NCBI GenBank assembly: GCA_043778225.1
Contig: JAYWGM010000063.1
Location: 1 to 64,000 of the forward strand
Direction: 5' to 3'
DNA length: 64,000 bases
Origin: Deinococcales bacterium
GTDB taxonomy: Bacteria > Deinococcota > Deinococci > Deinococcales > JAAFIG01
Part shown: one piece after another, positions 40,165 through 46,190 of the stretch
Layout of the letters: every line of letters begins with the position of its first letter
Numbering within the stretch: the stretch's first letter is position 1
Made by a program: the position numbers and the translations under genes
The notes under the pieces: model-generated
The model's input: the letters and a program-made list of their open reading frames with translations, nothing else
What the model was told of the DNA's origin: nothing
The model's database searches: none

Positions 40165-43100
40165 TTAGACTTTAGCCAGTCCTAGTCTGCCTTCCTCGAG
40201 ACTGACCACAAAATCAGAAGATAGAGGAGAGCTAAACTCGAGAAAATCACAAAGCGTATCTTCGCGCAATGTGGCTTCCCACGCCTTAGCTGCCTCGAGC
40301 CAATCGCCGCTTAAATCTAAACGCAATGCAATACGATTAGAAACTTCGAGACCAGAATCCTTACGCCCTTGTTGCACTGCCCGTAGTAAATCTCGAGCCA
40401 AACCCTCGAGAATCAAATCCTTAGTCAGTTCCGTGGTGAATGCCACCAGCAAACCATCTTGTTCCACTGCCGCAAACCCTTCTGGCGATTTTGCATCCAC
40501 CAGCACATCGGCAGGCTCGAGAAGAAACGCACCATCAGCAGTCTCGAGCGTAAAATTCTGGTTCTTGTTGACACTTGAAACAATCGCGCTCGAGTCGCCT
40601 TGCAGCAGCGCTTCGCGGATGGCTGGGATATTTTTGCCGTACTTGCGCCCAAGGGTTGGCAGATTTGGCTTTAAGTTGTACGAAATTAAATTTGTGCCTT
40701 CCTCGAGCAATTTTACAGTTTTAACATTGAGTTCTTCGGCAATCGTACTCGTGAAGCGTTCCAGTGCCAGATTATCGGTACTTTCTCGCGCCCTAAGCAT
40801 GACTTCGGCTAATGGCTGACGCAGTTTTAGGTTTGCCTGTCCTCGAGCCGCCCGTCCTAAGTCTACGACCCGAATCACGGCTTGCATTTCGGACACCAGT
40901 TGAGCGTCAAAACGCGCTGCATTGAACTTTGGAAACTCGCACAGATGCACACTTTCTGGAGCGCTTGAATCCAAGCCAACCACCAAATTCTGATACAAAC
41001 TCTCGGACAAAAATGGCGTAAATGGCGCAGCCAATTTTGTGACCGTGACCAATGCCTCATACAAAGTTGCATAGGCACTCGAGTCCACAATTCCATCCTG
41101 AGTCCAGAAACGCCGACGATTACGGCGCACATACCAATTGCTCAGTTCATCCACAAATGCCTCGAGTGCTTTACCGCCTTTTCGCGCATCGTAATTATTC
41201 AGCGCTTCTGTAACTGTTTGCACCAGCCCTTCAAGCCTCGAGATGAGCCAACGGTCAATTTCTGGGCGAGTCTCGAGTGTGGGCGCAACCTTCAAATCTG
41301 GATTATCGAGGTTGGCGTACAGCACAAAAAAGCTGTACACATTCCAAAGCGTATTGATAAAGCCGCGCTGTCCTTCAGCAATTAAGCGCTCCGAGAAACG
41401 CTTGGTGTCGCCCGGTTCAGAACCCGTGAACATATACCAACGCACTGAGTCCGCGCCAAATTTATCAAAGGCTGGCAGAGGCTCGACCACATTGCCTTTG
41501 GATTTGGACATTTTCGCGCCTTTTTCGTCTACCAAATGCCCGAGGCAAATCACGTTTTTATAGACTGGCTGGTCATAAAGTAGCGTTCCAATGGCGTGCA
41601 AGCTGTAAAACCACCCTCGAGTCTGGTCAATCGCCTCACAAATGTAATCGGCTGGAAAGTGCTTCTCGAAGGTATCCAAAGTTTCTTTGCTGCGAGCCAC
41701 ACCGTCCGCATCCAGCAGTAAATGCCACTGGGCATACGGCATTGCCCCAGAATCAAACCAGACATCCAGCACTTCTGGGACTCGAGAAAATGTCTTGCCA
41801 TCTTTTATAAAAGTGGCATCATCAATGTACGGACGGTGTAAATCCTCATTCTCGAGTTCTTTGCCCATCAGGTTCTCGAGTTCCGCCACAGAACCAACGC
41901 AAACGTAATCACGTCCATCTTCAGAAACCCAAAAAGGAAGCGGCGAACCCCAATAGCGCTCACGGCTGATGCCCCAATCGACGTTGCCCTCGAGCCATTT
42001 ACCAAAGCGTCCATCCTTGATATGTTCTGGAATCCAATTGATTTCTTGGTTGGTCTCGGACATCCGCTTTGACATTTTTTCGGTGCGGATAAACCAACTT
42101 GGACGGGCAAAATATAAAATTGGGTCGCCAGTGCGGTCATGGAACGGATACCTGTGCTTGAGTGTTCCCGCGTGGTACATCAGACCGCGTTCGCGCATGG
42201 TTTTGATGAGACCCTTATCGGCATCCTTAAAAAACTTGCCACGCTCGTCGGTCACTTGCATGATGCCGTTGCCATTTGTGCCAAAACACAAGACGCAATC
42301 GTAAGATTTACCAACTTCTAAATCCTCTGCGCCGTAGACTGGGGCTTGGTGGGCTAAACCAGAGCCGTCTTCGTCGCCGACAAAATCGGCTAGGACGACG
42401 ATGTGCGCCCTTGGGTGAGACGAGTCCGCGCCAACCGTACCCGCTTTCCGACTCGAGAATTTATCTTTATTCAAACCGAGTTCTTCAAAAACTTCGGGGA
42501 ATGGCTGCTCGTACTGCCAAAAGTGCATCAGTTCGCCTTTGAAGGTGGCTAGAACCTCGAGGGGCGGGGCATCCTTATTCAGTTCTGAGATTCGAGTCAC
42601 AGCATTTTTGGCAATCACGATATGACCCATTGGGCTAGAACACAGCACATACTCGAGATTTGGATTGACGGCTGCCAAAGTGTTGCTCGGCAGTGTCCAA
42701 GGTGTGGTTGTCCAAACAATCAAGGCTGGCTGCTCGAGCTTGGTTAAATCCACGCCCTGCGCCTCGAGACTTGCCCTTAAATCTTGTGGGGTGGTCTCGA
42801 GCTTGACCGGCAGACGCACATAGACACTTGGGTCATCCACCATTTGGTAGCTGTTCTCATCGCCAAGTTCGGCTTTGGACAAGGTGCTGCCGATGCGCGG
42901 CGAAACCGGCACAACCTTAAAATCTCGCTCGACCAAACCTTTATCCCAGAGGCGCTTGAGTAAATTCCAAACCGATTCAATGTACTCGTTTTTATAGGTC
43001 ACATAGGCATTCTCGAGGTCTACCCACATCCCGAGGCGTTCGGTAAAATAATTCCAATCTAAAATGTTGCTAAAGACACTTTCACGGCACAAGCGGTTAA

Positions 43101-43452
43101 ATTCCTCGAGTTCGGCGCGGCTCGAGCCATGATTGCGCCCTTTCATACCCATTTTCTTTTCGACTGCAATTTCGACAGGCAGCCCGTGGGTGTCCCAGCC
43201 GCCTTTGCGGGTCACATGAAAACCATTCATGACCTTAAAACGTGGGAAAATATCTTTGAAGGCTCGAGCCAAAACATGGTGCATGGCGGGTTGCCCGTTG
43301 GCGGTTGGCGGACCTTCGTAAAACACAAATTCGCCAGATGGGGCGGGTTTGGATTCGGTTTGACCGAAAATATCTCGAGCCTTCCAGAACTCGAGAACGC
43401 GGGCTTCGACATCTTTGTAGCTGACTTGCGGGCTGACTTCGTTAAATTTCAT
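40165..43452 (-). CDS. ileS: Isoleucine--tRNA ligase (IleRS2 type)
   Basis: EGPPTANG, GWDTHGLP, WTTTPWTLP, ISRERYWG, DQTRGWF and KMSKS motifs; long C-terminus. Confidence 0.97.
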   Translation of the reverse strand: MKFNEVSPQVSYKDVEARVLEFWKARDIFGQTESKPAPSGEFVFYEGPPTANGQPAMHHVLARAFKDIFPRFKVMNGFHVTRKGGWDTHGLPVEIAVEKKMGMKGRNHGSSRAELEEFNRLCRESVFSNILDWNYFTERLGMWVDLENAYVTYKNEYIESVWNLLKRLWDKGLVERDFKVVPVSPRIGSTLSKAELGDENSYQMVDDPSVYVRLPVKLETTPQDLRASLEAQGVDLTKLEQPALIVWTTTPWTLPSNTLAAVNPNLEYVLCSSPMGHIVIAKNAVTRISELNKDAPPLEVLATFKGELMHFWQYEQPFPEVFEELGLNKDKFSSRKAGTVGADSSHPRAHIVVLADFVGDEDGSGLAHQAPVYGAEDLEVGKSYDCVLCFGTNGNGIMQVTDERGKFFKDADKGLIKTMRERGLMYHAGTLKHRYPFHDRTGDPILYFARPSWFIRTEKMSKRMSETNQEINWIPEHIKDGRFGKWLEGNVDWGISRERYWGSPLPFWVSEDGRDYVCVGSVAELENLMGKELENEDLHRPYIDDATFIKDGKTFSRVPEVLDVWFDSGAMPYAQWHLLLDADGVARSKETLDTFEKHFPADYICEAIDQTRGWFYSLHAIGTLLYDQPVYKNVICLGHLVDEKGAKMSKSKGNVVEPLPAFDKFGADSVRWYMFTGSEPGDTKRFSERLIAEGQRGFINTLWNVYSFFVLYANLDNPDLKVAPTLETRPEIDRWLISRLEGLVQTVTEALNNYDARKGGKALEAFVDELSNWYVRRNRRRFWTQDGIVDSSAYATLYEALVTVTKLAAPFTPFLSESLYQNLVVGLDSSAPESVHLCEFPKFNAARFDAQLVSEMQAVIRVVDLGRAARGQANLKLRQPLAEVMLRARESTDNLALERFTSTIAEELNVKTVKLLEEGTNLISYNLKPNLPTLGRKYGKNIPAIREALLQGDSSAIVSSVNKNQNFTLETADGAFLLEPADVLVDAKSPEGFAAVEQDGLLVAFTTELTKDLILEGLARDLLRAVQQGRKDSGLEVSNRIALRLDLSGDWLEAAKAWEATLREDTLCDFLEFSSPLSSDFVVSLEEGRLGLAKV

Positions 43453-43482
43453 AAGACCTCAGTTTGCATGAATTTGATTTTC

Positions 43483-43619
43483 GTAGGGACAGACTCCCGT
43501 GTCTGCCCTGTGAGACGATGTAATTTGGAATTTTCCTTTGAATTATTGTTTTTGTTTACCTTTTGGTTTATCTCGAGCAATGATTAGCTGGCAGGACGAA
43601 CACGGGGGTTCGTCCCTAT
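43483..43619. repeat. Inverted pair of GTAG-type REP-like palindromes
   Basis: GTAGGGACAGACTCCCGTGTCTGCCCT (+, 43483-43509) and ATAGGGACGAACCCCCGTGTTCGTCCTG (-, 43592-43619). Confidence 0.7.
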
Positions 43620-43696
43620 GGTTTTTTTGGTTTGAATTTTCGAGACATTGTGCATATCATTGATACAGCTATGTAAATTTGCTTTCATACTAAAAT

Positions 43697-44482
43697 CTAT
43701 CCTTGAAATCCGATGTTGTTTAGGTGCTGCTCGGCAACTTGACCAAGACATAAGCGAATTGTTGTGAAGAACGGTCTCCATTGATAATCTAAATAGCGAC
43801 TGATTAGGTTTAAGGTTACGTCACGGTTTGCAACTCGCCATTGTTTTTTATTGTGTTCTATATCTCTGAATATGATAAGTCGCTGTTGTGCAAGTCGGTC
43901 ACAGTTTAAGTTCAGTATTTTGATGGTGTTTTCAACTAATTCAAAAACACTGGTAAACTTGTTATCCTCTAAGTTAATGGTTTTACAGTGTTGTTCATTT
44001 GGCTCGAGGAATCCATTTGTTGGATTGAACTGAAATAAACAGGGTGATGGAATTATGGTTAATGGATTGAGAATAATGCCTTCGCAGTTTTTTGGTATTT
44101 TTCCAGCTTGTTCCATATGATTTTTATGCGAATCACAACTTAAATTTTCTTCCAATGGTGATAGAAAATTGGGAAGATTGGGATTGTCACCGCCATTACA
44201 AACCCCAATCATATTTGACCAAAGCAATGCCCAGTTTAGTGCCGAATCTGACGTATCTGACTTTGCATGAAAATGTTCTACTCGAGTCGTTAATGGTTCT
44301 GACGCTGAAATCTTGCATTCACAATAGGCACAGAGACCGTATTGGTCACTAATAATTTGGGTTCTAATGTTTTTATAAACATCTTCAAAATTCCTCAAAT
44401 CTTTCCAAGTGGCTTTTGGATTATTGCTTTCAAAGGCGGTTAATTCTTCTGGGGGAGTGGTATTTTTGAAAACTGGTTTCAT
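43697..44482 (-). CDS. HNH endonuclease, PtuB-like (Septu or retron type I-A effector)
   Basis: QYGLCAYCE, RVEHFHAKS, W.N....C.GG, SCD and TI.ILNLN motifs; ATGA-coupled to the ATPase. Confidence 0.85.
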   Translation of the reverse strand: MKPVFKNTTPPEELTAFESNNPKATWKDLRNFEDVYKNIRTQIISDQYGLCAYCECKISASEPLTTRVEHFHAKSDTSDSALNWALLWSNMIGVCNGGDNPNLPNFLSPLEENLSCDSHKNHMEQAGKIPKNCEGIILNPLTIIPSPCLFQFNPTNGFLEPNEQHCKTINLEDNKFTSVFELVENTIKILNLNCDRLAQQRLIIFRDIEHNKKQWRVANRDVTLNLISRYLDYQWRPFFTTIRLCLGQVAEQHLNNIGFQG

Positions 44483-45834
44483 TGATTCTGCTCCCAAATT
44501 CGGTTTTCAATAAATAAATCCGCTTCGAGTAAAGCAGGTTCTTCACCCAGATAACGTTGATCTAAAATAGTTCGCAATTCGATGGCTCGAGGCGAAGCCC
44601 ACTCATTTTTGAAAACAAGTTCTTGATATTCAAGCAGTTCTCGAGTTGCCATGTTTTTCTGAGGTCTTGGGTCAACTCCAAAAATGCGTTTTAGAATCCG
44701 ATTGGACTCTGCTCCTTCCGTACCAGAAGGGGTGAAAATTTGATTATTCTCAATAACTCGAATACATTCGGCGGGAACAGTTGATAACACTTGAGGGCTG
44801 TGGGTACTCACAATAAATTGAGTATTCGGAAAAGTACGTCGTAAATCCCCAAGAATTCGTTGCTGCCACATCGGATGCAAATGTAAATCTATTTCATCAA
44901 TAATCACAATGGCTTCTTGATGCAATGGGTTGATACCAGTAGCCTCAGATGGATTGGCTTGTGCCATCCGCAAAGATAAATCCATAGCCAGTGCCAGCAT
45001 GGTGCGGAAGCCATCACTAAGTTGTCCGAGCCTAAGGGTTTTGACTTCCCCATTTTCAAGTGTTTGATCTATGACAAATTGCAAGGGTTTAAGTTTGGTA
45101 CGTGGATTTGAAAAGCTGGGCAGCATGATTCTGATTGCTTCGCGCATGACTTTCAAATCAGGTAATTCATAGTTGAAATCCCTTAGTTCGCGCTGAGCAT
45201 GAAGCTCAAGCCGCTCAAGGTAATCAAAACGCTCGTAAATAGCGCGAAAATTGCTGGTTGCGCCAAACGCGCCTTCAAAAGCCTCGAAACGTCTAAATTG
45301 CTTGCGGAAGTCAGTACGGCGTTCAACCTCTGCCATAAATACCCTATTTGTACCGTAGTAACGAACCAGTGGGAGGGTGTAAGGTTTACCAGTTTTTTCT
45401 GCCTCCAGAAGACCAGAGATGAACTCATTAAAATTCTGCTTCAATTTAGCTATATCTTCTGGATTGCTAGCAGGTTTTCCTAGCTCCGCATCAAACTCAA
45501 ATTGGGGATAGACTTTTTTGACACTTTTGTCTTTGACTTTAATTGCTATTAACAGTGTTGAACCTTGAGTCGGCAAATATATTGATAATGAAATTTGCGC
45601 CAAGTCTGCACTTTGTTGATTCGTACCTATCTTAATGTCATTTGTGGTCATTGCTTTGCCATCGCGCTGAATCAAACCAGTTGCCATACGACTTAGGAGA
45701 AAATTTATTGCTTCAAGCACGGCTGTTTTTCCACCACCATTTTCAGATACAAAAACGGTTAATTTTGGATGGAACATGATCATTGCTTCTTGAAAACAAC
45801 GAAAAGTTGTTAGGTTTAGAGCTACTAGTTTCAT
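44479..45834 (-). CDS. ABC/AAA-type ATPase, PtuA-like
   Basis: Walker A ENGGGKT, signature LSDG, IDEIDLHLHP, STHSP and C-terminal EGAESNRILKRIFGVDPRP. Confidence 0.87.
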   Translation of the reverse strand: MKLVALNLTTFRCFQEAMIMFHPKLTVFVSENGGGKTAVLEAINFLLSRMATGLIQRDGKAMTTNDIKIGTNQQSADLAQISLSIYLPTQGSTLLIAIKVKDKSVKKVYPQFEFDAELGKPASNPEDIAKLKQNFNEFISGLLEAEKTGKPYTLPLVRYYGTNRVFMAEVERRTDFRKQFRRFEAFEGAFGATSNFRAIYERFDYLERLELHAQRELRDFNYELPDLKVMREAIRIMLPSFSNPRTKLKPLQFVIDQTLENGEVKTLRLGQLSDGFRTMLALAMDLSLRMAQANPSEATGINPLHQEAIVIIDEIDLHLHPMWQQRILGDLRRTFPNTQFIVSTHSPQVLSTVPAECIRVIENNQIFTPSGTEGAESNRILKRIFGVDPRPQKNMATRELLEYQELVFKNEWASPRAIELRTILDQRYLGEEPALLEADLFIENRIWEQNQ

Positions 45835-45878
45835 AAATCTCCATTATATTTTTGACTTTGCAGAATCTTGAGCAACAC

Positions 45879-46155
45879 AAAAACCCCAACAGACGCTTGT
45901 GCGTCATGCTGGGGCGCTAGTAATTGCGCGTTACCACCCAACTTCACTCGAGCCTTGCGGTTCTCGAGCCTTTATACCAACCATTGCGGATTGGTTTGCG
46001 CTGTATCGGGCGCACCCGAACGGTTCTACTCGAGAATAATTCTCTTTCTTCCATCTGCTCGGAGGTGATGTTGGCTCGAGTTCGTGTCCATCGGCGCTTT
46101 CACCGTCCGCCGTTCGCTGTTGGTCGTGTCTCGAGTTACGTCCTCGTCGTTGCGG
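45879..46155 (-). ncRNA. T-box riboswitch, Ile (AUC specifier), transcriptional type
   Basis: T-box AAGTTGGGTGGTAACGCG (45927-45944) with antiterminator partner CGCCCC; terminator CCCCAGCA...TGTTGGGG-T5; stem I AGCGA/GGTGAAAG elements; ATC specifier at 46067-46069. Confidence 0.9.
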
Positions 46156-46160
46156 CTATC

Positions 46161-46190
46161 AGTGTACGGACTCGAGGTAGGGCGTGTCAA
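46161..46190 (-). promoter_or_regulatory. Sigma70-type promoter of the T-box leader
   Basis: TTGACA-18-TACACT. Confidence 0.8.

Follow-up and report, generated by a model that had tools for sequence, protein, structure and literature searches.

The locus described here lies on the minus strand of a 64,000-nucleotide stretch of an uncultured Deinococcales bacterium (the whole stretch is called the window, and its genome G000), where a promoter-like site is followed by an isoleucine T-box leader (Ile T-box), an intrinsic terminator, the genes ptuA and ptuB of a Septu-type defence pair, a 244-bp spacer and ileS, the gene of isoleucyl-tRNA synthetase (IleRS). The original prediction, made from the letters of the window, had proposed this anatomy together with the AUC specifier of the T-box, and all its parts are present and correct within a few bases. 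We hold it to be probable, if by no wide measure, that the locus holds a functional, standalone Septu system, acquired horizontally and nested in an Ile T-box–ileS operon, at a cargo hotspot served by terminator read-through, and that its position reflects tolerance and exchange. The positions of IleRS and T-boxes were compared over 31 related genomes, and PtuA was followed through 363 Deinococcales genomes. The features of the locus, in window coordinates, are:

46161..46190, minus strand: TTGACA-18-TACACT, a sigma-70-like promoter immediately ahead of the T-box leader (consensus scan)
45907..46159, minus strand: Ile T-box leader, from Stem I to the antiterminator (RF00230)
45879..45914, minus strand: intrinsic terminator, 14-pair stem and U-run, alternative to the antiterminator (folding)
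45835..45878, minus strand: 44-nt gap from the U-run to the ptuA ATG, left edge of the cargo
44479..45834, minus strand: ptuA, Septu ABC-type ATPase of 451 aa (PDLC00311), ATG at 45834
43697..44482, minus strand: ptuB, HNH nuclease of 261 aa (PDLC00338), ATG at 44482
43453..43696, minus strand: ptuB–ileS spacer of 244 bp, mostly two REP-like hairpin repeats, right cargo edge near 43545
40165..43452, minus strand: ileS, type-2 isoleucyl-tRNA synthetase of 1095 aa with a C-terminal DUF5915, the ancestral T-box target

The T-box switch and its promoter

The promoter (46190-46161) agrees with the consensus at 10 of 12 positions. By itself this match is weak, since the promoter-like sites of the 3.1-kb region total six, and 6.0 are expected from shuffles; the call is supported by its placement immediately before the T-box and by the string CACGTTGACAC, which is common to the relatives, the −35 context of the T-box promoter having been kept in G003, G005 and G001 (alignment A2).

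A check of the leader with the Rfam T-box model, suggested along with the original prediction, returned RF00230 at 45907-46159 over model positions 1-219, with 60.8 bits and an E-value of 4.7e-12 (1.4e-12 genome-wide), a score that lies below the Rfam gathering score of 93 for this family. For this reason the T-box is not called in a default Rfam scan, and detection was made in E-value mode; the best T-box of 28 of the 31 related genomes falls below the same score. The specifier AUC occupies 46069-46067 and is followed by an A (AUC+A at 46069-46066), and this ATC+A is invariant in all 17 of the 17 aligned orthologous ileS leaders. The T-box core is found at 45945-45926, with its UGGU bulge at 45936-45933, and the host tRNA-Ile(GAU) has the discriminator A and an encoded CCA, an A-CCA end that matches the bulge. 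The terminator folds with −25.2 kcal/mol (z −4.3, with 0 of 200 shuffles equally stable), and the antiterminator (−13.9 kcal/mol) is mutually exclusive with it, both using the same 3′ strand with GCGCCCCAG as their common segment. By its sequence parts the Ile T-box attenuator is complete, tRNA-dependent antitermination is predicted, and the ATPase–HNH pair is its first coding output, as had been proposed.

Not all Ile T-boxes of the relatives have this form. In G003, G005 and G001 (loci L033, L034 and L039) a hairpin of about 12 nt replaces most of Stem I; these leaders reach 27-32 bits in Rfam and retain the specifier, the T-box core and the terminator. They resemble the short-Stem-I ileS T-boxes of Actinobacteria.

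The PtuA–PtuB pair and its DNA

The true start of ptuB is an ATG (44482) that shares the string ATGA with the ptuA stop, and not the TTG at 44497 given in the list of open reading frames (ORFs). PADLOC recognizes both proteins as the PtuAB pair that had been expected: PtuA matches the Septu model PDLC00311 (PtuA1) over its full length at 3.4e-118, and PtuB matches PDLC00338 (PtuB1) at 2.9e-93, the retron I-A models being weaker (ATPase_I-A 2.3e-85, in two pieces; HNH_I-A 8e-43). PtuA contains the Pfam-type domains AAA_21, SMC_N and AAA_15, with a Walker A motif GGGKT at residues 33-37 and a Walker B motif IIDEID at 311-316, both invariant in the five orthologues, and the CxxC, EHFH and CDSH motifs of PtuB (HNH/zinc finger) are intact. 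Pairwise dN/dS ratios among the five orthologous pairs, taken only where the synonymous divergence (dS) is unsaturated, are 0.06-0.11 for ptuA, 0.11-0.14 for ptuB and 0.05-0.07 for ileS. Judged by its motifs, models and substitution rates, ptuAB is an intact standalone Septu pair under purifying selection, and it is predicted to be functional.

Among solved structures, residues 2-432 of PtuA align with residues 2-443 of the E. coli Septu PtuA 8ee4 (E 4.9e-43), whereas the retron ATPases, of 542-552 aa, align only with PtuA residues 224-449. With 451 aa the protein is without the N-terminal extension of about 90 residues of the retron ATPases, and is shorter than the long PtuA by which retron I-A is recognized, a protein of about 540-550 aa with additional N-terminal and coiled-coil parts. 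PtuB has as its closest solved counterpart the HNH protein of retron Ec83 (140 bits, 5.9e-40, residues 8-205), and matches the solved E. coli Septu PtuB with 25.9 bits only. On the question of whether the two proteins are retron-associated or standalone, raised with the original prediction, the architecture of PtuA and the best models point to standalone Septu; the nearest solved PtuB is that of a retron. The claim that the window holds no reverse transcriptase (RT) or msr-msd stands, there being no match to PF00078 and no Rfam retron match in the window in either gathering or E-value scans. In the 89%-complete genome the sole PF00078 match is on contig C65, at another locus than ptuAB, and belongs to a UG13b-class DRT (RT_UG13b 8.2e-140 vs RT_I-A 1.1e-13), so that the whole-genome search gave no cognate retron RT.

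The composition of the pair sets it apart from its surroundings. The pair has a GC content of 0.37-0.41, and the profile across ptuAB runs at 0.36-0.43, vs about 0.50 around it; the palindromic hexamer CTCGAG, which is present in 24,877 copies in the genome where 931 are expected and was used as a marker of foreign DNA by its density, occurs at 1.5 per kb in ptuA and 2.5 in ptuB, vs 9.4 in ileS and 7.0 in the window. The pair is compositionally foreign and was probably acquired horizontally. The isoleucine content differs too: 6.9% in PtuA and 7.3% in PtuB, with 12 AUA codons in the pair, vs 3.5% and a single AUA in IleRS. As side observations, the hexamers GAGCTC, CTGCAG and GGATCC are nearly absent from the genome (24, 13 and 24 copies); the long ORFs of the window average 5.4% isoleucine, beside which IleRS is Ile-poor, as if tuned for scarce Ile-tRNA; and a cluster of 26 tRNA genes that spans 4.3 kb (G000:C19:9937-14171), which covers most amino acids and includes a second, divergent tRNA-Ile(GAU), has a native-like CTCGAG density of 6.3 per kb.

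The spacer between ptuB and ileS is filled by two hairpins (43594-43615 and 43485-43509) of a dispersed REP-like family with GGGGCGAAC-type arms, of which 26 strict copies are found genome-wide; the same repeats flank ptuAB in G003, G005 and G007. The first of these hairpins reads as a terminator on the plus (antisense) strand only, and over the spacer (43453-43696) the scan called no minus-strand promoter or terminator. A conserved regulatory role, backed by compensatory changes, was considered for a hairpin 30-45 nt upstream of ileS and was rejected because both spacer hairpins belong to the 26-copy family. Likewise, the “Y” ORFs of the relatives (x94, x151, x95 and the N-terminus of x250) are spurious translations of REP-like repeats, and these repeat-derived ORFs show recurring peptide strings. 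Each cargo edge carries an ATTC; with 4 bp it is too short to count as a target duplication, and that reading was dropped.

The gap between leader and synthetase in related genomes

Orthologues of ileS are present in 31 of 31 relatives, and cargo was scored wherever the Ile T-box and the ileS start share a contig, which is the case in 16 genomes of the family (G004, G008 and G010 were left unscored). These genomes are kin, and the counts that follow are not counts of independent events. Genes lie between T-box and ileS in 12 of the 16, in gaps of 466-4,326 nt, while the other four (G002, G011, G015 and G017) have none; of 12 genomes sampled from four other families, two show no Ile T-box and the remaining ten have no cargo. 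Where cargo is lacking (14 sampled genomes), 44-168 nt separate the T-box from ileS downstream. The survey of relatives that accompanied the original prediction as a proposal strengthens the idea of co-transcription, well past the reach of a single sequence.

The PtuAB pair itself occupies the gap in five genomes: G000, G003, G005 and G007, of genus g1, and G016, of genus g5. Identity to the proteins of the window is, for PtuA, 83% in G003, 72% in both G005 and G007 and 63% in G016, and for PtuB 62%, 78%, 79% and 56% in the same order. Among the 363 Deinococcales genomes only these five have a PtuA of at least 63% identity, eight further genomes giving matches of at most 46% over part of the protein; in a search of 5.8 billion proteins the clade comprises seven clusters at 63-100% identity, with the next at no more than 50%, and in a quick tree it has an SH-aLRT of 100 on a long stem. 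A scan of genome contigs found loci of the clade only in the 4 relatives already counted, and a metagenome scan gave 4 distant loci and no member of the PtuA clade. The pair is absent from G001, G002 and G006, which are of the same genus as the window.

Other cargo of the ileS gap consists of membrane proteins of a family here called X, small soluble proteins and NUDIX hydrolases. The X family (about 195-200 aa, 3-4 predicted membrane helices) is encoded immediately before ileS in most genomes of the bacterial family and is absent from the window; it evolves fast, with 25-33% identity where IleRS has 88-96%, and neither Pfam, PADLOC nor the ESM Atlas (best score 0.90, unnamed clusters) gave it a function. 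Its loci are:

L032:220-819, X family
L033:251-841, X family
L034:120-776, X family
L035:243-863, X family
L037:1155-1742, X family
L038:142-735, X family
L039:739-1353, X family

In G003 and G006 the ATG of the first cargo gene overlaps the terminator U-run, and in G007, G001 and G005 about 9-17 nt, which include a GGAG-type site, separate the U-run from the first start; since the start codon comes 0-17 nt past the terminator, these five junctions are too short to accommodate a promoter. G016 has ptuA 45 nt past its terminator, a GTGA overlap between ptuA and ptuB, and ileS 39 nt after ptuB, an arrangement so compact that ileS could hardly be transcribed except by way of ptuAB. Taken together, the cargo junctions of the relatives and the 39 nt of G016 make co-transcription hard to avoid. 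The window is looser, with 44 nt from the U-run to the ptuA ATG and 244 nt from ptuB to ileS. Its 44-nt gap (45835-45878) holds a GGAG (45842-45839) and a perfect TATAAT (45848-45843), 8 nt before the ATG; the TATAAT has no −35, the consensus scan calls no promoter in this gap, and the hexamer is absent from the otherwise homologous junction of G016. Junctions of this kind behind the terminator formed at least twice, that of G000 and G016 being homologous and that of G005 different, and all annotated cargo genes at both the ileS and the valS loci lie on the strand of the synthetase.

The alleles at the site have not simply descended with ileS. The dS of ptuA between G003 and G005 is 0.10, where that of ileS is 0.58; between G000 and G007 it is 1.31 for ptuA and saturated for ptuB, vs 1.22 for ileS; and between G000 and G003 it is 0.92 for ptuB vs 1.06 for ileS. 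These discordant values rule out simple vertical inheritance of ptuAB, and they indicate that alleles have been exchanged piecemeal among relatives at the site. In G003 (L033), moreover, a stretch of 39-45 nt some 75 nt before ptuA repeats the ileS start region with 97% identity, and by its sequence this copy is a scar, either of insertion into the ileS 5′ end or of recombination anchored in it.

A second T-box of the same genome has a comparable neighbourhood. The Val T-box, with specifier GUC, lies at the end of contig C84, and the join to the valS contig (L048, L082 and L083) rests on about 97 identical bases of overlap, read by eye:

G000:C84:16201-16414, Val T-box
G000:C65:9366-19662, joined segment

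About 10.1 kb of genes on one strand, of restriction-modification (R-M), toxin-antitoxin and candidate-defence type, separate this T-box from valS, in the order NUDIX, unknown ORF, PIN, type II methylase and endonuclease, PDC-S02, HicB, HEC-01A/B, RT UG13b and valS. The Val leader could be scored in 10 genomes of the family; in 9 of these the gap holds at least a NUDIX gene, and several of them add R-M, HicB, PIN or DUF1016 genes. The third T-box of the genome stands directly before a class-II synthetase. On our reading the ptuAB site is one of a pair of cargo hotspots peculiar to this lineage, each located between a T-box leader and a class-I synthetase gene (ileS or valS).

Probable tolerance and exchange, and the alternatives

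If we accept this arrangement as a working operon, transcription would begin at the promoter at 46161-46190 and most transcripts would end at the T-box terminator, while a basal leak, together with antitermination by uncharged tRNA-Ile(GAU), would allow RNA polymerase to proceed into ptuA–ptuB and on to ileS. The two defence genes, probably coupled in translation, would in this way be kept at low expression by the T-box and raised when the charging of tRNA-Ile drops, as would follow from their being transcribed by terminator read-through. An ATP-binding PtuA oligomer would hold PtuB, whose nuclease would attack nucleic acid, most likely DNA, on infection. As for the origin of the arrangement, the T-box core and the 5′ end of the aminoacyl-tRNA synthetase (aaRS) gene would have been highly conserved anchors flanking a dispensable, REP-rich leader, so that genes inserted in the sense direction would have gained a free promoter and would have been swapped among relatives. 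Both the nuclease target and the mechanism of the hotspot we infer. The mixture of cargo, together with indels, repeats and exchanged alleles, suggests that the position reflects tolerance and exchange, and not a design specific to PtuAB. The original prediction had seen a PtuAB-specific circuit, which does not fit the varied cargo of the same gap in the relatives or the whole island behind the valS leader; its simpler alternative, a passenger insertion inside an essential transcription unit, was right as to the insertion and comes closer to our reading, but is too narrow for a hotspot that recurs across the lineage.

Several points weigh against this reading. Co-transcription and induction by uncharged tRNA-Ile are inferred from sequence and synteny; the TATAAT 8 nt before the ptuA ATG may be a promoter of its own, and Deinococcus commonly makes leaderless transcripts; an ileS promoter invisible to a simple consensus scan could lie concealed in the 244-bp spacer; and at valS the 10-kb island almost certainly needs internal promoters, so that the T-box promoter cannot explain the expression of all its cargo. 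In addition, the exclusive placement of the clade at one site in two genera, read from the five members whose surroundings were covered (P0004-P0006 are three more) and holding in spite of the low GC and absent CTCGAG of G016, could reflect selection for regulatory coupling.

The last of these considerations leads to the alternative that deserves the most serious attention, even though we think it unlikely: that T-box coupling was itself selected, as an adaptive immunity gated by tRNA charging, in which phage takeover, starvation or tRNA damage would produce uncharged tRNA-Ile (and tRNA-Val) and so pre-arm Septu and the other cargo along with the synthetase, the gap being preferred for its regulation. 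The confinement of the PtuAB clade to this site in its 5 of 363 genomes, the repeated origin of the junctions behind the terminator, the compact operon of G016, the loading of the second T-box operon of the genome with defence-type genes and the common orientation of all cargo would agree with it. However, membrane proteins, NUDIX hydrolases and parts of toxin-antitoxin systems have no known need for such control, an Ile-rich pair beside an Ile-poor IleRS would be translated badly in a true shortage of Ile-tRNA, the many indels and the REP-like repeats suggest a hotspot of recombination, and standalone Septu has an ATP-based gate of its own, as described in a portion of PMC12673091. A wider proposal in the same direction, which we regard as about equally unlikely, is that T-box leaders have been co-opted as stress-gated platforms of immunity, where uncharged tRNA would turn on the cognate synthetase and the docked defence cargo at once, with the gap between leader and aaRS as a selected docking site, for Septu at ileS and for R-M, DRT, HEC-01 and toxin-antitoxin genes at valS; uncharged tRNA is plausible as an early sign of phage takeover, of an attack targeting tRNA, or of an influx of foreign tRNA. 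A further alternative, improbable in our judgement, would make ptuAB an independent cassette, expressed from the TATAAT on a leaderless or near-leaderless mRNA, with ileS served by a spacer promoter and the T-box largely a bypassed relic. It can draw on the proximity of that hexamer to the ATG, on the AT-rich nature of the spacer before ileS and on two weak promoter-like sites within ptuA; yet the hexamer has neither a −35 nor a counterpart in G016, a promoter would not fit into the junctions of G005, G003, G006, G007 and G001, ileS of G016 follows ptuB after only 39 nt, and the T-box is fully intact, with a specifier invariant across all the aligned leaders.

Much less credit can be given to the circuit envisaged in the original prediction, where PtuAB would be a tRNA-cleaving toxin of retron I-A type and the T-box would replace a lost retron restraint. 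PtuB does stand far nearer to the retron I-A HNH of Ec83 than to the E. coli Septu PtuB (26 bits), and according to passages of PMC11555353 and PMC12673091, the Eco7 (Ec78) PtuAB depletes tRNA-Tyr in vivo, the second of these sources describing that cleavage as seen in vivo only, and the two PtuAB pairs from retrons are each toxic by themselves. But the link to tRNA finds no support, as the nearest relative is Ec83/Eco4, for which the consulted part of PMC11555353 reports no tRNA loss and PMC12640716 cites cleavage of single-stranded DNA, only Ec78/Eco7 cutting tRNA-Tyr in these sources; that the T-box should take the place of retron control is at odds with a PtuA of standalone Septu architecture, aligned at full length with standalone PtuA and lacking the retron extension, with best PADLOC models that are PtuA1 and PtuB1 and not ATPase_I-A and HNH_I-A, and with a sole RT that is UG13b and lies elsewhere. 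Least credible of all is a domesticated housekeeping role of ptuAB in IleRS or tRNA-Ile metabolism, for which the strong purifying selection and the stable linkage to ileS might be adduced, but which agrees badly with a patchy presence even within the genus, with a mosaic allele exchange typical of defence loci and with the foreign composition.

With respect to known systems, the pair of the window resembles the standalone type I Septu of E. coli (8EE4/8EEA) in its two adjacent genes, its ATPase of about 450 aa, its HNH PtuB and the lack of an RT; it differs in its distant PtuB and in lying within a riboswitch-controlled essential operon, where the E. coli pair would be at home in an ordinary island served by a promoter of its own. 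The E. coli system cuts DNA under ATP inhibition, according to an excerpt of PMC12673091. With Retron-Eco4 (Ec83) it shares the closest solved PtuB and the best-scoring C-terminal half of PtuA (3.1e-49), but it has neither RT nor msr-msd nor the N-terminal extension, whereas the Ec83 pair is restrained by RT-msDNA, as stated in part of PMC12640716. Retron-Eco7 (Ec78) has a homologous ATPase–HNH pair, with E-values of roughly 1e-34 to 1e-36 for the C-terminal half of PtuA; this pair is more distant than that of Ec83, and nothing here ties the PtuAB of the window to tRNA. The leader is like the canonical T-box leaders of ileS and valS in Bacillota and Deinococcus-Thermus in its promoter, its Stem I with the cognate specifier, its core and its terminator/antiterminator switch, but unlike them in that switch and aaRS gene are held apart, by foreign defence genes occupying 2.4 kb at ileS and by about 10 kb at valS. 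The variable cargo between conserved anchors, with exchange of alleles, recalls the core defence hotspots outlined in parts of PMC10250203 (cDHS of P. aeruginosa) and PMC10121019 (E. coli islands), from whose descriptions the present site differs in that it lies within a transcription unit, flanked by a cis-regulatory RNA and an essential gene, and in that all its cargo is co-oriented with that gene.

At the level of abstracts, a literature search found no paper on defence genes in a T-box operon. What distinguishes the locus is that a Septu system stands physically behind a sensor of tRNA charging and ahead of an essential gene, that this recurs in the lineage, and that a multi-system island occupies a second T-box. 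Defence systems are usually described as being expressed weakly, constitutively and from promoters of their own. If the coupling were functional, translation stress would be linked to immunity; if it were only positional, the site would define a novel type of defence hotspot, one placed within an essential operon under riboswitch control, for which conserved RNA and aaRS anchors, plus the REP-like repeats, suggest a mechanism.

Beside the operon, a gene for a putative endonuclease of the Uma2 family (PF05685; 46084-46788, plus strand) diverges from the region of the T-box promoter; its true start probably lies further downstream, since the longest ORF runs into the T-box leader.

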